This document shows, piece by piece, positions 8,497 to 37,672 of a stretch of DNA of 64,000 nucleotides; positions within the stretch are counted from its first letter, which is position 1, and each line of letters starts with the position of its first letter. The notes under the pieces were generated by a model. The model was not told where the DNA came from, did not search any database, and saw only the letters and a program-made list of their open reading frames with translations. Made by a program: the position numbers and the translations under genes. Origin of the DNA: Candidatus Poriferisodalaceae bacterium. Its GTDB lineage: Bacteria > Actinomycetota > Acidimicrobiia > Acidimicrobiales > Poriferisodalaceae. The stretch spans positions 1,909,521 to 1,973,520 of the forward strand of contig OZ243045.1 in NCBI GenBank assembly GCA_965212125.1. The letters run 5' to 3'.

Positions 8497-9597
8497 ATGG
8501 CTGGTAGCAAGTTTGGCGAGCGGTTTTCGGTAACGACGTTTGGCGAGTCGCACGGCGGCGCAGTCGGCGTGATCATCGACGGCTGCCCGGCTGGCATCAA
8601 GCTGGACGCGGCTGCCATCCAAGCCGACCTTGATCGCCGCCGCCCGGGGCAGAGCCGCCTGGTTACCCAGCGCCAGGAAGCCGACGAGGTGGAGATTCAG
8701 TCCGGGTTGTTTGAGGGCGAGACCTTAGGCACGCCGATTTCGCTGGTCGTGCGAAACACCGACGCGCAGCCCGGCGCTTATGAGCACATGCGTGACCTGT
8801 ACCGCCCCAGCCATGCGGATTACACCACCGAGGCAAAGTACGGAATACGCAACTGGCAAGGTGGCGGGCGGGCTTCGGCGCGTGAAACCGTCGGTCGGGT
8901 TGCCGCCGGTGCGGTGGCGCGCCAGGTTTTGGCGCAGCTAGGCGTCGGCGTGCTGGGCTGGGTCAGTTCGATCGGTGAGATTGATGCGACCGTGGACGCG
9001 GCGACCGTGCGGCTAGAAGACGTAGAGGCCGATCCGACGCGCTGCCCGGATTCAGCCAGCGCCGCGGCGATGACTAAAGCCATCGAGGCCGCCCGCAAGG
9101 CTGGCGACTCGTTGGGCGGGGTGGTTACGTGTGTCGCACGGGCGGTGCCAGCGGGACTGGGCGAACCGGTGTTTGACAAACTTGACGCCGAGCTAGCGAA
9201 GGCGGTCATTTCGCTGCCGGCAACCAAGGGAGTGGAGATCGGCAGCGGCTTTGCGGGCACGCGCCTGACCGGCAGCCAGCACAACGACGAGTTTGTACCA
9301 GGTGCGGACGGCAAGCCGGCGGTGGCCAGCAACAACAGCGGCGGCATCCAGGGCGGCATCAGCAACGGCGCCGACATCATGCTGCGGGTTGCGTTCAAGC
9401 CGACCGCCACCATTTCGTCGCCGCAAAAGACCGTGAATACAGACAATGAAGCCGCCGAGCTAGCAGCCACCGGCCGGCACGATCCGTGCGTGTTGCCGCG
9501 GGCGGTGCCGATGGTTGAGGCGATGGTTTGTTTGGTGCTGACCGATCATCTGCTGCGCCAGCAAACAACCCGTCTGGCGAACCCGCCGTCGGCCTAG
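8497..9597 (+). CDS. aroC: chorismate synthase
   Basis: [36 protein letters not shown] and GRHDPCV blocks. Confidence 0.95.
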
Positions 9598-9624
9598 CGT
9601 CGGCCTAACCACGAGCCAGTTCTT

Positions 9625-10428
9625 TTGAATCTGGGCCCAGACCTGCTGCTGGCCGCGGCTTGCGTTGTGGCGGGGATTATCAATGCGATGGCGGGCGGCG
9701 GTTCGCTGATAACGGTGCCGCTGCTGACTTTTTTTGCCGACCTGGGCGGGCTTGTCGCCAACGGCACTAACCGCATCGGCGTGCTAACGCAAAATCTTTC
9801 TTCTGCTTTTAGTTATCGCCGCTCCGGGGTGTCGGGCGTGCGCAAGGCGGTGTCGGTTTTGGTGCCGGTGTTTGCTGGGTCACTGGTTGGCGCACTTGTG
9901 GTGGCAAACATCAGCGAAACCGCGTATGAAATAGCGTTCGGTGCGCTAATGGTGCCGTTGCTGGTGCTGAGCTTTTGGCGCCCCAGGAAAAAGAGTGCGA
10001 CCGCGACCGAGCCGGCGGGAGCTTCGCCACAGTCCACCCCGCCACTCACTCAGCCTCCCAGCGCGGCGATTGCTTGGCCGCGCTATGTGACTATCCCGGT
10101 GTTTGTTGCCATCGGCATGTACGGCGGCGCTTTTCAGGCTGGTGTTGGCTTGGTGATCGTGTTGGCGCTGTCGCGTGCTGGGCTTGATTTGGTTAACGCC
10201 AACGCTGTGAAGGTGGTCGTGATCGCCATGCTGACTGCGGTGGCGATACCGGTGTTCATCTTTTCTGACCAGGTGCATTGGGGCTATGCGGTGATTGTCA
10301 GCGTGGGATTTGCCGTTGGCGGTTGGATTGGTGCGCATTTCGCGGTGCGGGGTGGCGAGCGTTTGATCCGGCCGGTCATGTTGGTGGCGGTGGTCGCCCT
10401 GGCTGGTCGAATGGTCGGGCTGTACTAG
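9625..10428 (+). CDS. TauE/SafE family anion (sulfite) exporter-like membrane protein
   Basis: 267-aa polytopic protein with the AGIINAMAGGGSLITVPLL N-terminal motif and an internal duplication typical of TauE/SafE. Confidence 0.85.
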   Translation: MNLGPDLLLAAACVVAGIINAMAGGGSLITVPLLTFFADLGGLVANGTNRIGVLTQNLSSAFSYRRSGVSGVRKAVSVLVPVFAGSLVGALVVANISETAYEIAFGALMVPLLVLSFWRPRKKSATATEPAGASPQSTPPLTQPPSAAIAWPRYVTIPVFVAIGMYGGAFQAGVGLVIVLALSRAGLDLVNANAVKVVVIAMLTAVAIPVFIFSDQVHWGYAVIVSVGFAVGGWIGAHFAVRGGERLIRPVMLVAVVALAGRMVGLY

Positions 10429-10464
10429 ATCGCTGGTTTTTCAGCACGGGTGTTTTTAGTCGGG

Positions 10465-10470
10465 TACAAT
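10465..10470 (+). promoter_or_regulatory. candidate -10 box TACAAT, possible leaderless transcript starting at ATG 10478
   Basis: TACAAT ends 7 nt before ATG 10478 and there is no SD between them. The identical element sits before copy 2. No convincing -35 box. Confidence 0.35.
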
Positions 10471-10471
10471 C

Positions 10472-11221
10472 GTGGGTATGGGACTAGTAAAGCTGTTTTC
10501 AATACCCGCTGTCGTTGTTCTGTTTGCTGTTGCTTGCGGTGCGACGGAAGCGTTACGCACAGAGGGCGCACCACAAGCTGATGCGGTTGGGCGGCTGGGC
10601 GCGGCTGGGATTGTTGCTGCTGCTGCGCCTGACGTTGAGCCTGAAACCGCTGAGGAGGAGGTTGCTGGGCCTACGCATTCACACGGTGAGGACACGCACA
10701 CGCATGAGGTAGCCGTTGAGGAAGAGGCTGCGCCTGAGCCTGAAGCCGTTGAGGAGGAAGAGGTGGTTGAGCCTGAGACCGATGGTGCGGAGGTTGAATC
10801 CGAAATCATTTATGAAGAGATTGTGGAGCTTGAGGATACTGATTTTGAGGATTTGTGGAACGAGATTGTTATAGGTACAACCGAAGAGGGGTATCCCATT
10901 ATTGATGAAAGCAACAGACCCAGAGTTTGGGATTTGCTTACGGATGATATGTGGGAGTTGACGTATGTTTTCTACGGGGAAGACACCAAAACCACTTCCA
11001 CAATCAGTAGTTCAGGCCCGCCTGGCGGCATCATAATTCCAGAGGGTACCAAAGAGGAAAGGGATGCCTGGTTCAGAGAGCAGGGCGTAGACCCGGATAG
11101 GGTGGTTCATAATCCAATAACTACTTACAAGTTTCCTGCTACTACTACCGAAGCAGAAGCAAAGGCTTGGCTTAGAAAACAAGGCATAGACCTCAGCCTG
11201 GCAAAAATTGCTTACGAGTAG
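10472..11221 (+). CDS. hypothetical lipoprotein with His-rich acidic linker (copy 1)
   Basis: Signal peptide plus lipobox-like LFAVAC. The linker contains THSHGEDTHTHE within an E/A/P/V-rich repeat. The C-terminal domain of about 140 aa belongs to no family I recognise. AGA/AGG/ATA codons are used. The start may be ATG 10478. Confidence 0.7.
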   Translation: MGMGLVKLFSIPAVVVLFAVACGATEALRTEGAPQADAVGRLGAAGIVAAAAPDVEPETAEEEVAGPTHSHGEDTHTHEVAVEEEAAPEPEAVEEEEVVEPETDGAEVESEIIYEEIVELEDTDFEDLWNEIVIGTTEEGYPIIDESNRPRVWDLLTDDMWELTYVFYGEDTKTTSTISSSGPPGGIIIPEGTKEERDAWFREQGVDPDRVVHNPITTYKFPATTTEAEAKAWLRKQGIDLSLAKIAYE

Positions 11222-11245
11222 CTGAGATTTGGCTTCCGTTTTCTG

Positions 11246-13252
11246 ATGCGTCTACGTTTTCTTTTCTATCTTTTTATTGCCGCTCTTGTCGTGTCGGGTG
11301 GGGCGTTTCTGTTTTCTGGCACAGTGGAAGCAGAGCATAGGGAATCTTCTACTTACATACACAGGAACTGGTGGGTGCTACCTGCAACAAACGAAAGAGT
11401 CTGTCATATTCCTGACACTAGCGTGGGCGAGAATGAATGCCACGATGTTTTTGTCCCAGAAAGGAAAGAAACAACCGAATGTGAAGGCAAGGGAAACTGT
11501 GGGCACGGGCCGCCAGAGCCTGGAATGATTTTGGATGTGAGGGAAGGCTGTGGGGATGGAATCTGCGATGGGCACGATGACATTGAAATACCAGGCGAAG
11601 AAAGACTACATTGCCCGACGCCGGGTAAGACACACTTAGATGCTGATGATCCTGAATGTGATAGCGCCCCTCCCCCTCCTTGCGATATGAGTGCTACCGC
11701 TACACATGAAAACAGGTGGGTTGCTGGAAGTTCCACTGCCGGACACACCACCATAAGAGGCCATGGCCCCGAAAGCTTTAATTACTGCAACCACAAGCAC
11801 ACAGACCCAATTGGTGGTGGCGGTATTGAGGAGGAGGTAAGATTTGTTTGTGATGACCGTAGGTGGGATAGGACTGATAGGCACGAGGAACAGGTACGAA
11901 CTCATCCAGGGCACTCTCACGAGTGGCGGAGACATAATGGCTATTGCAACCATGAACACAAACCTGCTTGTAATCGCAGTTTGACAAGCACTCACGCAAG
12001 GGTCGCAATAGAGGATCACCCTAACAACGGAAGACACGGAAATCTAAGTCACAGAAGAAACGACACTTCTTCTGCCTCAGTCAGCACGAGAGTGGGAAGC
12101 AGCTATGGCACCTATTGCCCTCATAGTCATCCCGTTCCGCAGCAATGTTTCCCTGTGAGCGTGGAGCATGCTGCCCTTCCGCGACACGACATAAACGGGC
12201 AATCCACACCTGCTGAGACTGTTATTTGGGCTAGCGACAACGATAGTCAGAACAGCCTTGTTGATCCTACTAAACCTCTTTATTGGGAAGTTAGAGATAA
12301 CCATAACTCCCACGACCACACTTACAATTCAACAACGTTTAAATTTCCGTGTCCTCACAGGCATGGGAAGCCTATTTTGGTTTGTGATTTGGTAGATGTG
12401 GATGATGGTGAGGATTGGGCTTCGGACATTGGGTATCAGTTATCTCACCAAGCTAAGTGGGAAATCCGTGATGGGAAGATACTACGGATAGAAAGGAAAT
12501 GGTCTGGATCGCAGCTAGCAAAGCGCTTATGGGGTAAAAATCCTAGTTTCCTCATAAGGAACGGAGGGGGGTTTGGAAGCGATAATCTAACTGTTTTAGG
12601 AATCCATCAAGATGGTTTGCTGACAGGCGATAGTGGTGGTGATAGCAGCGACCGAACTTTTTTCAACTCTGAGATTACTGAGGTTAGTCCGCATCCCATA
12701 ACTGGCCGCCAGCAAATGCGCTTATCGCACTTAGATCACACAGGCTCATTTCTCGCTGCTAACGGGATAACTTACAGGACATGGGGTGAAGTCGGTTTCT
12801 TATGGCTGGACTGGAACACTCTGTTCGGAAGCGATTGCCCCATCCCGGTGGATCTAATACCACTTCCACCACCCCCGCCTCCTCCACCTCCTCCTCCACC
12901 AGTCTGCAGCCCGTATCACACTGGAAATCATGTCTTCAACGCCTCGTGGTTTCCATATCTCTCATATCTGTTAAATCACACTGAGATAAAGCAACACGAC
13001 GACCAACTCAACGACGGAGTCCTACTCTGTGACCATAAACATCCTCCACCACCTCCCCCTTGCGATGATGCGGATCAGGCTCGCCTTGCAAGACATAAGA
13101 GGCTCGGGCATGTTTGGGATGTAAGTAAGAACCACACTGAAATAAAGAGCCATGGTTGGCTTCATGTGTGTGACCCGTCTCATAACCACACTGTGCCTGA
13201 GTTAGATCCAACTGATCAGGGTAGCGACGTCGAAGATAGCGACCCTTCTTAA
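11246..13252 (+). CDS. hypothetical secreted His/Cys-rich protein with C-x-H-x-H modules and polyproline tracts
   Basis: An uninterrupted 668-codon ORF in about 45-55% GC DNA. The N-terminal signal-like segment is LFIAALVVSGGAFLFSGTVEA|EH. By my count it has 51 His and 22 Cys. No family recognised. Confidence 0.7.
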   Translation: MRLRFLFYLFIAALVVSGGAFLFSGTVEAEHRESSTYIHRNWWVLPATNERVCHIPDTSVGENECHDVFVPERKETTECEGKGNCGHGPPEPGMILDVREGCGDGICDGHDDIEIPGEERLHCPTPGKTHLDADDPECDSAPPPPCDMSATATHENRWVAGSSTAGHTTIRGHGPESFNYCNHKHTDPIGGGGIEEEVRFVCDDRRWDRTDRHEEQVRTHPGHSHEWRRHNGYCNHEHKPACNRSLTSTHARVAIEDHPNNGRHGNLSHRRNDTSSASVSTRVGSSYGTYCPHSHPVPQQCFPVSVEHAALPRHDINGQSTPAETVIWASDNDSQNSLVDPTKPLYWEVRDNHNSHDHTYNSTTFKFPCPHRHGKPILVCDLVDVDDGEDWASDIGYQLSHQAKWEIRDGKILRIERKWSGSQLAKRLWGKNPSFLIRNGGGFGSDNLTVLGIHQDGLLTGDSGGDSSDRTFFNSEITEVSPHPITGRQQMRLSHLDHTGSFLAANGITYRTWGEVGFLWLDWNTLFGSDCPIPVDLIPLPPPPPPPPPPPPVCSPYHTGNHVFNASWFPYLSYLLNHTEIKQHDDQLNDGVLLCDHKHPPPPPPCDDADQARLARHKRLGHVWDVSKNHTEIKSHGWLHVCDPSHNHTVPELDPTDQGSDVEDSDPS

Positions 13253-13425
13253 GACGCACCCCAGACGCGCCTGCCAAACAGTGAGCGTGAGTCATTGCGC
13301 CCTCGCACAGCTGTGTCGTGTGCAAGGCAGGATCGCTGGTTGGTGCCTTAGAGAAAGGGTGCGGTTGAGGGCGAGCCAGCGAATGCCTCACTACAGCCCA
13401 CATCGCCATTCACCTAGCAACCGAG

Positions 13426-13566
13426 TGCGGTGATTGTCAGCGTGGGATTTGCCGTTGGCGGTTGGATTGGTGCGCATTTCGCGGTGCGGGGTGGCGAGCG
13501 TTTGATTCGGCCGGTCATGTTGGTGGCGGTGGTCGCTTTGGCTGGTCGAATGGTCGGGTTGTACTA
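13426..13566 (+). pseudogene. promoterless 3' fragment of a tauE/safE gene (last 47 codons)
   Basis: Colinear with 10287-10428. It starts abruptly in mid-gene, has no upstream ORF in frame, and ends with the same TAG. Confidence 0.8.
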
Positions 13567-13603
13567 GATCGCTGGTTTTTCAGTACGGGTGTTTTTGGTT
13601 TGG

Positions 13604-13609
13604 TACAAT
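13604..13609 (+). promoter_or_regulatory. candidate -10 box TACAAT (copy 2)
   Basis: Same element and same spacing to ATG 13617 as in copy 1. Confidence 0.35.
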
Positions 13610-13610
13610 C

Positions 13611-14339
13611 GTGGGTATGGGACTAGTAAAGCTGTTTTCAATACCCGCTGTCGTTGTTCTGTTTGCTGTTGCTTGCGGTGCGACGGAAGCGTTACGCACA
13701 GAGGGCGCACCACAAGCTGATGCGGCTGGGATTGTTGCTGCTGCTGCGCCTGACGTTGAGCCTGATGCCGTTGAGGAGGAGGTTGCTGGGCCTACGCATT
13801 CACACGGTGAGGACACGCACACGCATGAGGTAGCCGTTGAGGAAGAGGCTGCGCCTGAGACCGATGGTGCGGAGGAAGAGGTGGTTGAGCCTGAGACCGA
13901 TGGTGCGGAGGTTGAATCCGAAATCATTTATGAAGAGATTGTGGAGCTTGAGGATACTGATTTTGAGGATTTGTGGAACGAGATTGTTATAGGTACAACC
14001 GAAGAGGGGTATCCCATTATTGATGAAAGCAATAGAGCCAGAGTTGGTGATTTGCTTACGGATGATATGCGGGAGTTGACGTATGTTTTCTATGGTGAAG
14101 ATACTGTAACTACTGAAACAATCAAAGTACACGGCCCACCTGGCGGCATCATAATTCCAGAGGGTACCAAAGAAGAAAGGGATGCCTGGTTCAGAGAACA
14201 AGGCATAGACCCAGATACTGTGATTCGTAATCCAATAACTACTTACAAGTTTCCTGCTACCACTACCGAAGCAGAAGCAGAAGCTTGGCTTAGAAAACAA
14301 GGCATAGACCGCAGCCTGGCAAAAATTGCTTACGAGTAG
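13611..14339 (+). CDS. hypothetical lipoprotein with His-rich acidic linker (copy 2, paralog)
   Basis: 242 aa with the same signal/lipobox and THSHGEDTHTHE motif. It differs from copy 1 by linker indels and clustered substitutions in the C-terminal domain. Confidence 0.7.
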   Translation: MGMGLVKLFSIPAVVVLFAVACGATEALRTEGAPQADAAGIVAAAAPDVEPDAVEEEVAGPTHSHGEDTHTHEVAVEEEAAPETDGAEEEVVEPETDGAEVESEIIYEEIVELEDTDFEDLWNEIVIGTTEEGYPIIDESNRARVGDLLTDDMRELTYVFYGEDTVTTETIKVHGPPGGIIIPEGTKEERDAWFREQGIDPDTVIRNPITTYKFPATTTEAEAEAWLRKQGIDRSLAKIAYE

Positions 14340-14406
14340 CTGAAATTTAGCTTCATTTTTGTTGCCGACCTGTCTGCTTTAAGCGGCTAGTCCGCCAGCG
14401 GCTATG

Positions 14407-15555
14407 TCAGATGGCTTTTGCCATGGCTGTGATGGCTTGATTGACCATCTCGGGTGAGGTAGCGAAGTTAAGCCGTGCAAAGCCTTTTCCTTCAACTCCG
14501 AAGTCTGGGCCGGGATTAAGCGCAACCCGACCTTTCTCCAGAAAAACCTCAGACGGGTCGTCACCTAACTCCAGCGCGTTGCAATCAAGCCACGCAAAAT
14601 AAGTGGATTGCGGTATGTGATAGCGCACGCCTGGCAAATGCTCAGCCACCAGCTCAGCCACCAAATGGCGGTTGCTGTCAAGGCCAACAAGCAGTTCGTC
14701 CAGCCAAGGCTGGCCATGCTCCCAGCCTGCCACGGTGGCGACTTGGCCCAGCTCGCTGAGGCCACCGATCTTACGCTTCGGTGTTTTCAAAACTGCTGGC
14801 CCGTAACGCTGCGATGCGCTATGAACGAACGCAATCCGGGCGGCCGCCATGTTGAACGACTTGGTGGCAGCGGTAAGAGTGATCGTGCGCTGCGACGCCG
14901 TCTCGCTGCTAGCGGCCACCGGCAGATGCTTGTGTGGGGAGTACACGAGGTCGCAGTGGATCTCGTCCGAAATGATTACTAGGTCGTTCCGCTCGGCAAT
15001 GTCGGCGATGACGCCAAGCTCAGCTTCGGTCATGACAATGCCGCTGGGGTTATGCGGCTGGCACAAAAACAAAGCCTTGACTCCGTCTTGCGCTGCGACC
15101 GACTCAAGGTGATCCAGATCAAGCCGCCAACCCTGCTCGGTTTCTTTCAACGGGTTACGCACAACCCGGCGCCCGTTCTTTTCAACCGACGAATAAATCG
15201 GCGGATACAGCGGCGTCTGCAGCACAATGCCGTCGCCGGGTTCAGTGAGATTGTCAATCGCTAGCTCAAGACCCTGCATCACGTCGTGCACAACGAGGAT
15301 TTCAGCGGCGCTGGTCTGCCACCCGAAAGCGGTTTGCATGCGGTTCACAAAGGTTTCCAGCACCGGAATCGGCTTGTCGTAAAAGTCGTAGCCGAGCCCG
15401 CCAACGGATATTCGTTCGGTCAGCGCTTGTGCGATGCAAGGCGCAGGCTCAAGGTCCATGTCTGCAACCCAAGCCGCCAGCACGCCCGGCCCGTAGCGAC
15501 TCCACTTGGCGCCCGGTCGGTTGACGATGCGTTGCTGGTCAAGTTCAAAGATCAT
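14407..15555 (-). CDS. PLP-dependent aminotransferase class I/II, MalY/PatB-type C-S lyase
   Basis: RPGAKWSRY N-terminal block, LCQPHNPSG, TKSFNMAA (PLP-Lys region). Confidence 0.85.
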   Translation of the reverse strand: MIFELDQQRIVNRPGAKWSRYGPGVLAAWVADMDLEPAPCIAQALTERISVGGLGYDFYDKPIPVLETFVNRMQTAFGWQTSAAEILVVHDVMQGLELAIDNLTEPGDGIVLQTPLYPPIYSSVEKNGRRVVRNPLKETEQGWRLDLDHLESVAAQDGVKALFLCQPHNPSGIVMTEAELGVIADIAERNDLVIISDEIHCDLVYSPHKHLPVAASSETASQRTITLTAATKSFNMAAARIAFVHSASQRYGPAVLKTPKRKIGGLSELGQVATVAGWEHGQPWLDELLVGLDSNRHLVAELVAEHLPGVRYHIPQSTYFAWLDCNALELGDDPSEVFLEKGRVALNPGPDFGVEGKGFARLNFATSPEMVNQAITAMAKAI

Positions 15556-16387
15556 TTGTTTGCCTGTTCTGTTTTGGTTTTGCGTGTCTGATAATTACAA
15601 CCGGGTAGCCGATAAGTGCGACCGCCGCGAATGCGAAGTATTGGAATGTGTAGCCGAGATGCGGGCCAGCGCCCGGGCTTGGTGGCGCCAACGTCTGCAG
15701 GTCGCCTGTTGGCGGTGGTGACGGCGTGGCGGTTATCAGCTCAACGTAGACGGCGGGCAGGAGAGTCTGCGGCGTTTGCGTGTTGATGCGAGCAACGTCA
15801 ACTCTGGCTAGCGAATCCAGCCGACCGGTGGGCGGGTCGGTCGGGCCGAACAAGCCGCGGGTTTGGGTGAGGCGGATGCGGCCCTGCAGATTGGTGGTGG
15901 CGGTTGCGGGCAGGGCGGCGGTTGCGAACTGGGTTAGCTCCAGGGTTGGGTCGTCCGCGTTAGCGATCTCTAGGCAGGTTGCGCTTGCCAGCCAGCCGGC
16001 TATTACCAGCGCGGCGGCGTCTTGCGCGGCGTCAGTTGCGCCGTCCAGCTCAAGCGGCACCGCCAGGTGGCAGCCGCTCAGCCCGCTCAGGCTGCGATTG
16101 CGAATCAAAACCGATTCGCTGTGCGCCCAAGTGCCGTTCAGATCGGCAATGCGCCACTCCAGTTGTTCGGCTGCGGCTGTGGCACCTGCACCCGCCGCCA
16201 GCAACCCAGCCAGTTCCGATCCTCCCAAGACTGGCTCTTGTGCCCGTTCCAAGGTGGCGGTGTTTTTGTCTTGTCTTTCGTGGTGGCGATTTAGCTGCCA
16301 GATCCCGGCGATTATGAAAGCCACCAGCAAGGCGAGCGTCAGCAGATGTCCGAATATCCAGATCGGCGAACGCAAGAAGCCGTACAT
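15545..16387 (-). CDS. SURF1 family protein (cytochrome oxidase assembly)
   Basis: N-terminal TM segment followed by GIWQLNRHHE, and a C-terminal TM segment. This is the architecture typical of bacterial SURF1. Confidence 0.65.
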   Translation of the reverse strand: MYGFLRSPIWIFGHLLTLALLVAFIIAGIWQLNRHHERQDKNTATLERAQEPVLGGSELAGLLAAGAGATAAAEQLEWRIADLNGTWAHSESVLIRNRSLSGLSGCHLAVPLELDGATDAAQDAAALVIAGWLASATCLEIANADDPTLELTQFATAALPATATTNLQGRIRLTQTRGLFGPTDPPTGRLDSLARVDVARINTQTPQTLLPAVYVELITATPSPPPTGDLQTLAPPSPGAGPHLGYTFQYFAFAAVALIGYPVVIIRHAKPKQNRQTNDL

Positions 16388-16401
16388 CGCTGCGACGCTA
16401 A

Positions 16402-18621
16402 CTAGCGGTCTGCTTGGGGCTGTTTGGGGACCTGCCCTGAGATTTGCCCAGCGATCGGCACAGGGCTGATTTGGTCGGCTATCGGAAAATCCAGGACCTG
16501 GCTGAGAAACGACAGCTCGGCCTCGGCCGCCGCGACGATGTTGTGCTCGCTGCGAAAGCCGTGCGCTTCGCCTTCAAACAGCAAATAACAATGCGGCACG
16601 CCAGCCTGTGCTAACGATGCGATGAGCTGCTCGGATTGGGAGGGTGGCACAACTAGGTCTTGGTCGCCTTGCAGCACGAGCATGGGCGTGCGCAAAAGTT
16701 CGCTGCGATAAAGCGGCGAGCGCTTGCGGTAGAGGTCGGTCGCCTCGGGCCACGGACCGACTAGCGAGTCCAGGTAGCGGGACTCAAATTTGTGGGTGTC
16801 GCGCACCAGCGACTCCAGGTCGGCGACGCCGTAGCGGGTCAGACCAGCGGCAAAGATGTCGGTCTCAACTAGGGCGCACAGGGTTGTGTAGCCGCCGGCG
16901 GAACCGCCTTTTATGACCAGCCTCTGGGGGTCTGCCTTGCCTGCCGCTGCTTCGCTTGCCGCCGCCTCGCTGCCTTCGCTCAGATAGCGAGCGGCCGCCA
17001 CGCAGTCCTCCATGTCTGCGACACCCCAGAGCCCCCGCAGCGAGTTCCGATAAGCGGTGCCGTAGCCAGTACTGCCGCGGTAGTTGACGTCTACCACTCC
17101 AATCCCGCGGCTCGTCCAATACTGAATGCCTAAGTCCAGACAGCTGCGGGCGCGCCCGGTTGGTCCGCCGTGGCCTAACACAAGCAGTGGCGGCAGCTCA
17201 TCGGCGGGGCCTTGGTGGGTAGCGCTGGTGGGTGGGAAATAGAACCCGTGAGCGGTTAAGCGGTCTTGCGTGGGGAACTCAATGATCTGCGGCTGCGAAA
17301 CGGAGTGCTGTTTTAGCGGTGCGTTGGTTGGCTCGCTGAGCTGGCGGTGAGTTCCGTCGGGCGATATTTCCACCACGGCTGCTGGCGTCGTCCAACTGCT
17401 GGCGACGGTTACTGCGGTGCCGGCGGGCGTTGTTTCTAGGCGTCCGAACTCGGTGAAACCTGAGTGGACTTCTGTGAGTTGTGCGGGCGCTGGCGTGTTG
17501 GCGGTGTTGTTGGTGTTGTTGGCGGCGGTGCTGATAATGCCGATGTGGCCGATGCCGCGGTCAACCCAGGTGCACCAAAGCCTGTCCGCATCAGGATCAG
17601 GCGCCCACGCGTAGGTCTGATTGGCGAATGTCCAGCTAGGAACGCCGAACTCGATTTGGCTTGTCCAATCTTGGCGGCCGACAAGCCCCGCCGGCGTGTG
17701 GTTCGGCTTGACCTGATGATCAACTCGGACGATGTCCCAAAAAGAGTCACCGTGGCCGTCCGCAGTTTCAGATACCACATGAAGTTGGCCGTCGGGGCTC
17801 CAGCGAGGCTGCTGCAGAGCAAGCCCGTCCATGACAACTCCAGCCGTAGCATCTCTATCCATAGCAGCGCGGCCTTGCTCGGCCGCCGGCTTGTGCGCCG
17901 GCAGGTCAATCACGTGAAGGCGGGTGCTGTCCCACGGCATGTTGGGATGATCCCAACTAATAAAAGCCAGCCGAGTGCCGTCCGGACTCGGCTGCGGTGA
18001 TGCGTAAAAGTCCGCACCCTGCGCCAGCACAACGACGGTGCCGTCAAGCGCAACGGACACGATTTCATTTGCCGGTTGGCCGCCGTTGTTGCCTCCCTGT
18101 TCGCCACCAGCTTGGTGCGTTTCACGCACCCACACGGTCGTGCTGGTGTTCGGAACGAGCGCCGGGTCGGCGTACCGCCACTGCGTCTTTGCATCGGGGT
18201 CGGGCGCCGGTGAGATCGCACGACCGCCGCTGCGGTCAAACAGCCAGATTCGCTGTTGGTCTAGCGCATTGACACCCAGCACGGACAGGTCTGACCCCGA
18301 CTGATTTTGCTTTGCCAGGCTCACCTCCGGCAAGGGCAGCCACGCACCGCCGCCATATTCGTGAACACGCGTATTGACATCGGCCTGTTTCATGTCGGTT
18401 ACGTCACGCGGCTGCGCGTGCGGGTCAGTCAGATCGGCGCAGACCAGAGTGGTGCGGCCTTGATCGGCTGGCCGGCGCTCGGCCCAAACGACCAAGCTCC
18501 CGACCACGCGTGGCTCGCTGCGACTTATCGCTCCGGCCGCTAACTGAGCGGCGGGTAACGGCGATGGCCAGCTGCCGTATGGCTCAGTGATTTTCTCAGG
18601 CGGCGCTTGCTTTTCAGGCAT
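16402..18621 (-). CDS. S9 family serine peptidase (prolyl oligopeptidase / acylaminoacyl-peptidase type)
   Basis: N-terminal beta-propeller-like region and a C-terminal alpha/beta hydrolase with GGSAGGYT nucleophile elbow, DLVVP and EGEAHGF. I chose the start at ATG 18621 (MPEKQ); the track gives TTG 18630. Confidence 0.85.
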   Translation of the reverse strand: MPEKQAPPEKITEPYGSWPSPLPAAQLAAGAISRSEPRVVGSLVVWAERRPADQGRTTLVCADLTDPHAQPRDVTDMKQADVNTRVHEYGGGAWLPLPEVSLAKQNQSGSDLSVLGVNALDQQRIWLFDRSGGRAISPAPDPDAKTQWRYADPALVPNTSTTVWVRETHQAGGEQGGNNGGQPANEIVSVALDGTVVVLAQGADFYASPQPSPDGTRLAFISWDHPNMPWDSTRLHVIDLPAHKPAAEQGRAAMDRDATAGVVMDGLALQQPRWSPDGQLHVVSETADGHGDSFWDIVRVDHQVKPNHTPAGLVGRQDWTSQIEFGVPSWTFANQTYAWAPDPDADRLWCTWVDRGIGHIGIISTAANNTNNTANTPAPAQLTEVHSGFTEFGRLETTPAGTAVTVASSWTTPAAVVEISPDGTHRQLSEPTNAPLKQHSVSQPQIIEFPTQDRLTAHGFYFPPTSATHQGPADELPPLLVLGHGGPTGRARSCLDLGIQYWTSRGIGVVDVNYRGSTGYGTAYRNSLRGLWGVADMEDCVAAARYLSEGSEAAASEAAAGKADPQRLVIKGGSAGGYTTLCALVETDIFAAGLTRYGVADLESLVRDTHKFESRYLDSLVGPWPEATDLYRKRSPLYRSELLRTPMLVLQGDQDLVVPPSQSEQLIASLAQAGVPHCYLLFEGEAHGFRSEHNIVAAAEAELSFLSQVLDFPIADQISPVPIAGQISGQVPKQPQADR

Positions 18622-18701
18622 ATTCACCAAAATTCAACTATTTCGCAACATTTTTGCACCCCGACATAAAAGATCGCCAATTCACAGGTAGCGTTGATGA
18701 T

Positions 18702-36361: not shown

Positions 36362-37672
36362 CTATAGATCAGCCGGTTCGTCAAGCGCAGCTAGCTCCTC
36401 AGGCTCTTTTAGCCCTGTTAATTCGGGTTTAGTTATTGAATCTGCCCTGGTTTTTATGGTTTGTGGCGAGGTGATTTCCTTTTTTGCGTGTGCGCCAAGC
36501 TCTTTAATTTTTCGGGCACTGGCCACGAAACGACTCTCAAGTGATCCAATGGCAGCGTTCTGGGCGTTGACTGCGTTGTTAAGCGCGTGGCTGACTTTAT
36601 TTACGTGCTCGACAAGTATCCCCAGCCGATCATAGAGTTCAGCGGCCTCATCTATTATCTCCTGTGCATTGTTATGTAGGTCATGCTGTTGCCAAGCTGC
36701 CGCGACGGTTTGTAAAAAAGCAATCAACGAACTCGGTGTGACAATAAGTACTTTGTGATCAATCCAGGCTCTTTCCAAAAGCTTCGTATCCCCGTCCAAT
36801 GCCGCGATCAAGAGCGCATCGCTTGGCAAAAACATCACAACAAAATCGGGTGAGCCGTTAACCAAATTTGCGTAATCACGCTCGCTCAGTTCTTTGGCCG
36901 TCCCTAGCACTGACCTTGCATGGGCTGCTAAGTACTCTTGCTGACTATTTTTGTCTTCGGCATCGTGAGCCCGCTTGTAATCCTCAATGATTGCCTTAGA
37001 ATCAATGACTACGTTTGACCCGCCAGGGATATACACAACCACGTCAGGGTCTTTGTGTTTTTTCTTGTTACTCGGTTCAACATTTAGTCGTACTTGCTCG
37101 TTAAAGTCAATGTGTTTACTCATGCCGGCAAACTCAAGGACATTGCGCAGGGTCTGCTCTCCCCACCTACCCCGATCACCCATCGATGAGCCCAGTATTT
37201 GGCGCAACGCTTCTGTTTCACTACTTAGCTTGCCGACCTGGTTGTTTACCCGCTCGTAAGCAGTGATGCGTTTTTCTTCTATATCGCCAACATGGCTTTC
37301 AAACTTCTTAAGCGTTTCGGCGATCGGCTTCAGCAGGCCATCAATCTTTGTGCTGCCGAGGTCGTGTTGTGTAGCAAACTGCTCTTTGGCTTGCTTTAGA
37401 AAAGCCTCCTGATTTGTTTGGGTGATTTCGGCGGCGATGCCCTTGAAGTGAGCGTCAAGGTCGTCACGTGTTTTTTCCATTTCTTCAATGCGTGCCTCAT
37501 GAGCTGCGGTAGCTGCCGCCAGTTCGGTTTCTAGCTGGTCTGTTTTTGCAGTTGCTTCGCGTGCCTTTGTATCTGCCTGATTACGCTGGTTGATGGCACG
37601 GATTAGCAGGACAACGGCAACGATCGCCGCTGCAGAAACAGCAATGATTATGGAGATTAGAACAGGAGTCAT
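36362..37672 (-). CDS. rmuC: DNA recombination protein RmuC
   Basis: N-terminal TM segment, a long coiled coil and a C-terminal RmuC nuclease-like region. GC is about 45-47% by hand count on two lines. Confidence 0.8.
   Translation of the reverse strand: MTPVLISIIIAVSAAAIVAVVLLIRAINQRNQADTKAREATAKTDQLETELAAATAAHEARIEEMEKTRDDLDAHFKGIAAEITQTNQEAFLKQAKEQFATQHDLGSTKIDGLLKPIAETLKKFESHVGDIEEKRITAYERVNNQVGKLSSETEALRQILGSSMGDRGRWGEQTLRNVLEFAGMSKHIDFNEQVRLNVEPSNKKKHKDPDVVVYIPGGSNVVIDSKAIIEDYKRAHDAEDKNSQQEYLAAHARSVLGTAKELSERDYANLVNGSPDFVVMFLPSDALLIAALDGDTKLLERAWIDHKVLIVTPSSLIAFLQTVAAAWQQHDLHNNAQEIIDEAAELYDRLGILVEHVNKVSHALNNAVNAQNAAIGSLESRFVASARKIKELGAHAKKEITSPQTIKTRADSITKPELTGLKEPEELAALDEPADL

Follow-up and report, generated by a model that had tools for sequence, protein, structure and literature searches.

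The stretch of DNA analysed here (64,000 nt, hereafter the window) comes from a Candidatus Poriferisodalaceae bacterium (GenBank assembly GCA_965212125.1, contig OZ243045.1, positions 1,909,521 to 1,973,520), and the subject of this report is an island, framed by a direct repeat, that lies between tauE and an aminotransferase gene. On the left side the island is preceded by aroC (8497–9597, + strand) and by an intact gene of the sulfite exporter TauE/SafE family, tauE (9625–10428, + strand; Pfam PF01925, E = 3.5e-40). Downstream of tauE, and all on the same strand, follow lipoprotein gene 1 (10472–11221; 249 aa from a GTG, or 247 aa from the ATG at 10478), a 668-aa orphan open reading frame (ORF) that we call big668 (11246–13252), a 173-nt spacer with host-like GC content (13253–13425), a tauE′ stub consisting of 46 codons and a stop codon (13427–13567, 141 nt) and an intact lipoprotein gene 2 (13611–14339; 242 aa), the product of which shares 87% amino acid identity with that of the first copy. 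The right border of the island is a class I/II aminotransferase gene on the opposite strand (14407–15555, − strand; Pfam PF00155), whose stop codon is separated from the end of the repeat by 45 nt of unique DNA (14362–14406).

The frame of this arrangement is formed by two colinear direct repeats that are about 94% identical, copy 1 (A, 10287–11243, + strand) and copy 2 (A′, 13426–14361, + strand). Each copy contains the last 46 codons of tauE, a 43-nt intergenic stretch and a lipoprotein gene, with copy 1 extending 22 nt past the stop codon of the latter, and together they bracket big668 and the spacer (B, 11244–13425) to give an A-B-A′ layout. A repeat search divided the similarity into blocks of 97% (10287–10586/13426–13725), 92% (10601–10764/13722–13885), 94% (10750–11006/13868–14124) and 92% identity (11015–11242/14133–14360). 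Global alignment of A with A′ by MAFFT gave 957 columns with 58 substitutions and 21 gap columns, the gaps being in-frame indels of 18 and 3 nt. When the island was compared with the window by blastn, the repeat was recovered over 957 nt at 92.3% identity with E = 0, which places it far beyond chance. An earlier reading of the window, made from the sequence without database searches (the sequence-only reading), had described a colinear repeat at these positions whose offset, 3139 nt at its 5′ end, has fallen to 3118 nt by the stop codons because of in-frame indels; the repeat search, the alignment and the self-comparison of the window confirm the repeat, with 3118 nt also at its 3′ end, and the 18-nt and 3-nt gaps account for the difference.

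The boundaries of the repeat are sharp. Copy 2 starts one base ahead of tauE codon 222, which is found at 10288 in copy 1, and the similarity ends at 11243 and 14361, the first of these being 2 nt short of the big668 ATG at 11246 (the sequence-only reading had placed the end 1–2 nt before this ATG). The sequences flanking both boundaries are unrelated to each other, in keeping with the abrupt start of copy 2 and the novel joint between 13425 and 13426 that had been recognized from the sequence. At this joint the end of the spacer (...AACCGAG) is fused to tauE codon 222 (TGCGGTG...), and the spacer end shows no microhomology with the bases ahead of 10287 in copy 1 (...GGGGCTA). The window holds no second copy of big668 or of the spacer and no A-B-A-B head-to-tail unit. 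Neither the rest of the window nor 80 related loci contain a match to the spacer, which as RNA folds no better than shuffled sequence (z-score 0.24). An Rfam scan of 9000–16500 produced no credible match, the one sub-threshold match lying inside tauE.

The island also departs from its surroundings in composition. In 1-kb intervals the GC content is 0.50 and 0.49 at 11–13 kb vs about 0.60–0.65 elsewhere, and the GC content at third codon positions (GC3) is 0.47 for lipoprotein gene 1, 0.44 for big668 and 0.41 for lipoprotein gene 2, against 0.63–0.77 for the other genes analysed, an RmuC-like gene (0.49) being the exception. Codons AGA and AGG make up 64–75% of the arginine codons in big668 and lipoprotein gene 1 and 56% in lipoprotein gene 2, compared with a background of 5%, and ATA makes up 31–48% of the isoleucine codons in the island genes, compared with 12%. 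An index similar to the codon adaptation index is 0.43–0.51 for the island genes vs 0.66 ± 0.03, which is 5–7 standard deviations under the genes of the window. These counts bear out the frequent AGA, AGG and ATA codons noted in the sequence-only reading and, once GC3 is computed, show that its departure is real in all three island genes. The low GC content described inside the island likewise stands, whereas the 65–67% given for the flanks is slightly high relative to the window mean of about 0.62. The view that a host repeat encloses a low-GC gene has to be revised, since the lipoprotein genes within the repeats depart from the host in composition as much as big668 does. Their GC3 is 0.40 already within the first 30 codons of each; GC3 is host-like in tauE (0.69) and in the tauE′ stub (0.67). 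Because the lipoprotein genes are equally atypical from their first codons, the atypical, foreign-looking island is not just big668 but takes in all 3.9 kb between the tauE stop codon and the right end of copy 2 (10429–14361). Host-like sequence is confined to the first 141 nt of the repeat, the tauE tail, and most of the repeat is foreign-like DNA.

By family annotation no transposase, integrase, recombinase or reverse transcriptase is encoded in or near the island. The nearest tRNA genes are found at 1040 and 20518, no closer than about 6 kb to either edge of the island, and no terminal inverted repeats were found at the edges, so that annotation together with the tRNA and repeat scans supports the earlier statement that integrase, transposase, terminal inverted repeats and tRNAs are missing there. 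Searches of PHROGs and PADLOC, of phage and plasmid collections by tblastn and of viral contigs returned no matches to the island, and the exact joint sequence was not found in the viral-contig scan. With its atypical composition and direct repeats around a cargo, the A-B-A′ layout has a superficial resemblance to a composite transposon, an integron-like cassette, a prophage remnant or an integrative element in which the repeats would serve as ends or attachment (att) sites. We consider an origin of this kind highly improbable, given the lack of mobility genes, edge tRNAs and terminal inverted repeats and the lack of matches in phage, plasmid and viral collections; the repeats, moreover, are protein-coding genes with a host-gene stub and not insertion sequence (IS) elements. 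A composite transposon or IS was rejected for want of a transposase or terminal inverted repeats, an integron because its defining parts are absent, and an integrase-mediated genomic island or prophage because there is no integrase, no edge tRNA and no PHROGs, phage or viral match. A diversity-generating retroelement was excluded as no reverse transcriptase is present and the differences between the copies are not adenine-specific; substitutions of all types occur, mainly C/T and G/A. Silent-cassette antigenic variation was rejected because the gene in copy 2 is complete and has upstream sequence of its own. The presence of the tauE stub in copy 2 excludes a mobile element that delivered a lipoprotein cassette more than once.

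A TauE-based scan of 185,579 species-representative genomes recovered no identical genome but a number of relatives, all of these being metagenome-assembled genomes (MAGs), with which the locus was compared. The nearest are Acidimicrobiales and Candidatus Poriferisodalis MAGs, with 59–65% identity in TauE and about 76% in AroC. A PAC2-aroC-tauE backbone is conserved in 15 relatives, of which none (0/15) has the island genes: nothing similar to the lipoprotein, big668 or the spacer is present in the 15 genomes, and comparison of the tauE-aminotransferase interval, which the sequence-only reading had recommended, finds the A-B-A′ layout in none of them. The aminotransferase gene is at the locus in 14 relatives, and in 11 of these the gap between it and tauE is only 35–182 nt. 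Inserts at the same site are carried by three relatives. The one in L007 (L007:10897–13350) encodes an 817-aa Beta_propel (PF09826) lipoprotein, the one in L004 (L004:10773–11222) contains a 149-aa coiled-coil ORF, and the one in L008 (L008:10710–20600) is an array of at least four tandem paralogues in units of 2.4–4.5 kb, 76–91% identical, which encode large secreted proteins with Calx-beta/LapA-like parts and have a host-like GC content of 0.67. Since the cargo in L004, L007, L008 and the window is unrelated, exported-protein genes recur at this site, which makes it a hotspot as judged from 15 distant relatives (59–65% TauE identity).

The right border of the island differs from the relatives in a further respect. 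In all 14 relatives with an aminotransferase gene at the locus this gene is on the strand of tauE (14/14), followed in most by SURF1 and a peptidase gene on the opposite strand, whereas tblastn shows that the aminotransferase gene of the window is inverted. The island is therefore situated at one inversion breakpoint. The aminotransferase ATG overlaps the stop codon of SURF1 (15545–16387, − strand) by 11 nt, and with the S9 peptidase gene beyond (16402–18630, − strand) the aminotransferase gene now has the appearance of closing a peptidase-SURF1-aminotransferase operon. The only inverted repeats around the aminotransferase gene are short, chance-level pairs. The remaining neighbours are housekeeping genes, encoding Ada/AlkA, an acyl-CoA dehydrogenase, a metallo-beta-lactamase-fold protein, a rhodanese, AzlC, PAC2, the S9 peptidase, XseA, DnaX and RecR. 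Elsewhere in the window, a second compositional outlier is the RmuC-like DNA recombination gene at 36362–37672 (− strand; NF007686, E = 1.3e-38), with GC 0.49, GC3 0.49 and a codon adaptation-like index of 0.535.

We interpret the A-B-A′ layout as real and as the result of ordinary chromosomal recombination at a variable site, not of a new kind of mobile element. In the explanation that we favour, and to which we give about an even chance of being correct, two diverged alleles were combined: a resident tauE-lipoprotein2-aminotransferase allele and an incoming tauE-lipoprotein1-big668-spacer allele from a related strain. Homologous exchange would have taken place at one end, at some point within A or upstream of it, and at the other end a single illegitimate joint would have connected the end of the spacer to tauE codon 222 (13425/13426). 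The event would be one of homology-facilitated illegitimate recombination, with the same outcome as Campbell-type integration of a circularised fragment. An intact tauE would have been rebuilt and the resident tauE-3′/lipoprotein2 module pushed downstream, each lipoprotein copy retaining its own 185 nt of upstream sequence, including a candidate leaderless promoter. A later partial gene conversion, or an allele that was already mosaic, may then account for a 5′ region of 620 nt that is near-identical and a 3′ region of 330 nt that is about 13% diverged. The allelic explanation is economical because one novel joint suffices. It accounts for a tauE rebuilt in frame, for the synonymous changes in the stub described below and for the similar synonymous divergence of stub and lipoprotein gene, and the end of homology 2 nt before the big668 ATG would follow from the presence of big668 in one allele and its absence from the other. 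Allelic origin is something that we infer, as are the promoter and the export of the proteins.

The sequence-only reading had proposed a Campbell-type single crossover with a circle of roughly 3.1 kb. This proposal is partly supported: with A and A′ flanking B the layout is one that such a crossover may have left. B holds only big668 and the matchless 173-nt spacer and has no replicon or circular-element functions. Linear DNA that recombined homologously at one end and illegitimately at the other would leave the A-B-A′ layout as well, and so would duplication in situ.

The tauE′ stub bears directly on the choice between an allelic and an in-situ origin. Because copy 2 carries a piece of the host tauE gene, it was templated from a chromosomal tauE-lipoprotein junction, either of this lineage or of a close relative. 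The amino acids of the stub are identical to the tauE C terminus, and the two sequences differ by 4 synonymous and 0 non-synonymous changes, all of them C in copy 1 and T in copy 2. Zero non-synonymous changes are expected if the stub diverged while it was part of a working tauE. The synonymous divergence (dS) of the stub is about 0.12 (an estimate from 4 differences at roughly 37 synonymous sites) and equals the overall lipoprotein dS of 0.12. For a neutral stub left by in-situ duplication, about 3–5 non-synonymous changes would be expected (estimate) at this dS, and the probability that all 4 differences are synonymous is about 0.04 when all mutation types are allowed and 0.07–0.08 with transitions only. 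The pattern is suggestive, not decisive, evidence against a neutral in-situ pseudogene.

Duplication in situ would start from a resident lipoprotein-big668 arrangement, of which the 0.95-kb tauE tail-lipoprotein segment was duplicated within the chromosome and diverged in place. The copy could have been placed 2.2 kb downstream, or B could have been inserted between the arms of a staggered-break or template-switch duplication, with gene conversion keeping the 5′ 620 nt similar. This origin is a serious possibility, nearly as likely as the allelic one and itself short of an even chance, and several observations weigh on its side and against the allelic explanation. The first is the L008 array of at least four tandem paralogues, which shows that plain in-situ tandem duplication operates at the tauE flank, so that local duplication is active at this very site. 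The second is the uneven divergence along the repeat, with 16 substitutions in the first 603 aligned nt (2.7%) vs 42 in the last 333 nt (12.6%; Fisher p = 6e-9) and a lipoprotein dS that rises from 0 in codons 1–40 to 0.27 in codons 170–249. Such heterogeneity demands an extra event in either model, and two-phase divergence would be the product of partial gene conversion between linked repeats. The third is the state of copy 2: at the variable sites copy 1 has G/C and copy 2 A/T 35 times and the reverse is true 16 times (p = 0.011), and lipoprotein 2 has lost two tryptophans of copy 1 (W153G and W161R), changes that fit a redundant in-situ copy decaying under AT-biased mutation. The argument from the stub, in addition, rests on four substitutions and weakens if only C>T changes are considered, in which case the probability of a synonymous-only pattern is about 0.2. 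Finally, none of the collections searched yielded a second strain or allele, which leaves the donor hypothetical.

In-situ duplication, for its part, needs two novel joints (13425/13426 and 14361/14362) or an insertion of B exactly at the junction of A and A′. A simple tandem duplication was rejected because there is no second B. The absence of non-synonymous changes from the stub is also difficult to accommodate, as given by the conditional probability of about 0.04–0.08 above. The ratio of non-synonymous to synonymous divergence (dN/dS) between the lipoprotein genes is 0.43 overall and 0.33 in the C-terminal domain, which indicates that both copies are kept under purifying selection and that copy 2 is not freely decaying. 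Within the diverged part of the repeat, an 18-nt patch in the region for the lipoprotein C-terminal domain (10997–11014 vs 14115–14132) differs at 11/18 positions, encoding STISSS in copy 1 and ETIKVH in copy 2, a divergence far above that of the repeat around it. The patch might be a tract of micro-conversion or encode a hypervariable loop.

The layout could in principle also have been created during assembly, either by concatenation of two strain haplotypes, with and without big668, or by a chimeric read that made the joint. The window probably stems from a metagenome assembly, in which strain mixtures are common, because the recovered relatives are all MAGs and the public proteins are on a single 2.07-Mb contig. 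The two copies differ by about 6–8%, as co-existing strains might, and big668 is missing from the public proteins while lipoprotein 1 (P0001, starting at ATG 10478, 247 aa) and lipoprotein 2 (P0002) are present. An artefact is nevertheless improbable in our view. The joint between 13425 and 13426 connects non-homologous sequences, whereas graph mis-joins fall inside shared sequence, and the spacer end does not recur beyond copy 2, where a linearised de Bruijn bubble would have placed it again; bubble linearisation was rejected on this ground. A random chimera would be unlikely to join in register and within 3 kb of this locus, and tauE and both lipoprotein ORFs are intact, with both lipoproteins present in the public annotation of the contig.

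The two lipoproteins share an architecture of a signal peptide, an acidic linker rich in E, A, P and V that includes HSHGEDTHTHE, and a C-terminal domain of about 135 aa. In both, the signal peptide is followed by a lipobox, LFAVA-C, read directly from the translations as MGLVKLFSIPAVVVLFAVA-C-G. Both copies conform by eye to the lipobox pattern [LVI][ASTVI][GAS]C, and both proteins thereby qualify as bacterial lipoproteins (Lgt/LspA substrates) with predicted lipidation. A His-rich motif of the linker, THSHGEDTHTHE, is identical in both lipoproteins (10660–10700 and 13778–13818). It echoes the HxH and CxHxH motifs of big668 described below and hints at a shared metal-related role. The C-terminal domain shows an internal duplication of two helix-strand units of about 33 aa (EERDAWFREQG-DPD... 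and EAEA-AWLRKQGID...), visible in the DNA as 77–79% identity over 47 nt (11047–11093 vs 11146–11192, and 14165–14211 vs 14264–14310). Among 5.8 billion protein clusters the only homologues are the two copies themselves, both on one NCBI/ENA contig of 2,071,822 bp. No match to the lipoproteins was obtained in Pfam, NCBIfam, PHROGs, PADLOC or PDB sequences, a scan of metagenome and viral contigs revealed no relatives, and an AlphaFold2 model of the C-terminal domain from a two-sequence alignment had weak confidence, with a predicted local distance difference test (pLDDT) score of 57. Upstream of lipoprotein gene 1, a candidate −10 box, TACAAT (10465–10470, + strand), is positioned 7 nt ahead of the ATG at 10478 and is kept in copy 2 at 13604–13609; it would yield a leaderless lipoprotein mRNA. 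This box was not reported by a scan for the sigma-70 consensus that required both the −35 and the −10 hexamer, and neither the sigma-70 nor the terminator scan gave more than would be expected by chance.

The big668 protein has an N-terminal hydrophobic signal or anchor and an unusual composition, with 51 His (7.6%), 22 Cys and 60 Pro, the latter including poly-Pro runs. It contains five CxHxH motifs, four of which are followed by a second Cys 3–6 residues on, and eight HxH motifs. An exhaustive HMMER search of 1.84 billion representatives with big668 gave a single match, the 534-aa protein P0003 (E = 1e-6; pairwise BLASTP E = 5e-16), which is encoded on the same 2.07-Mb contig as the window but outside the window. 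The exact motif LDWNTLFGSDCPIP is common to both proteins, as are CxHxH..P.C modules and an HCP-GK-HLDADD-C motif followed by poly-Pro; in P0003 the modules form four near-perfect repeats of about 42 aa (WCEHSHERPACLPVTAAHLAEADPSHLESSATEIESGFRF). P0003 is a paralogue of big668 in the same genome and its sole relative among about 15 billion public proteins. A search with P0003 without its poly-Pro part returned only P0003 itself, and a word-indexed search with big668 returned no matches, the candidate list probably having been swamped by poly-Pro words. There is no match to big668 in Pfam, NCBIfam, PHROGs, PADLOC or PDB sequences, nothing credible for P0003 in the family libraries, and no relative of either in an alignment scan of metagenome and viral contigs. 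AlphaFold2 gave unusable confidence for big668 from a two-sequence alignment (pLDDT 32), and Foldseek against the PDB returned only noise (E values no better than 0.09, template modelling scores up to about 0.23). The public protein collection contains P0001 and P0002, the neighbours of big668 on the same contig, but not big668 itself; either the depositor's gene caller skipped the gene or the public record differs there. We would guess, from composition only, that all three island proteins are exported envelope proteins and that the His/Cys-rich big668 binds metal.

Homology-facilitated illegitimate recombination, the process that the allelic explanation would invoke, has been documented experimentally (PMC3240628) and is described in Acinetobacter, Streptococcus pneumoniae, Pseudomonas stutzeri and Escherichia coli (PMC3240628; references in PMC5361080). 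As in that process, DNA at the island would have been added beside a conserved anchor gene through one non-homologous joint, with no recombinase and with the resident downstream sequence kept. In contrast to it, the event is here inferred from one genome, and the insert overlaps the resident allele, giving a 0.95-kb diverged duplication and not a simple insertion. The displacement of a downstream gene behind a 3′ stub of a conserved upstream gene has been ascribed to the same mechanism in type VI secretion system (T6SS) effector-immunity, Rhs and contact-dependent inhibition (CDI) arrays (PMC5361080). The island resembles these orphan-module arrays in that an incoming module would have displaced an older one behind a 3′ stub, which leaves direct repeats of stub and gene. 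It differs from them in that the stub derives from a transporter gene, tauE, and not from a toxin gene, that only one displacement step is seen, and that the island proteins have no toxin, immunity or defence signature in Pfam, NCBIfam, PHROGs or PADLOC.

With Campbell-type integration the island shares the A-B-A′ order, two copies that span the same interval and one closure joint; B, however, has no replicon, integrase or att functions, and the 3.1-kb circle is hypothetical. Hotspots without mobile elements, in which recombination takes place at flanking core genes, are common (PMC5635113). The variable tauE-aminotransferase interval, with its differing cargo, lack of mobility genes and strain-specific atypical content, is like such integrase-free hotspots of horizontal gene transfer, although it was compared across 15 distant relatives here and not within a species pangenome. 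The L008 tandem paralogue array is also a local duplication of exported-protein genes with their upstream regions, but the window has a dispersed A-B-A′ layout of compositionally foreign genes, whereas the L008 array has the host-like GC content of 0.67.

The island is strain-specific and occupies an integrase-free hotspot, with a diverged segmental duplication, a known phenomenon that here involves orphan exported proteins. A bolder proposal would be that in these Acidimicrobiales the 3′ flank of tauE serves for recombinase-free "cassette displacement", in which one-ended homologous recombination stacks new cell-surface gene modules and leaves tauE stubs behind in the manner of Rhs, CDI and T6SS arrays, and that big668 and P0003 represent a new family of exported CxHxH...C proteins, plausibly metal-binding, known from one genome so far; we regard this as rather doubtful. 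As a structural finding the island is a well-documented but ordinary case of hotspot turnover and segmental duplication, with orphan proteins that occur in one genome only. If the allelic explanation is true, a genome without obvious mobile elements at the site would stack new surface-protein genes through ordinary recombination anchored in a core gene, a process of which the stub of the host gene would be a datable scar. Should the organism live as a sponge symbiont, as its relatives do, the two lipoproteins and the His/Cys-rich protein could matter for host interaction or metal handling.

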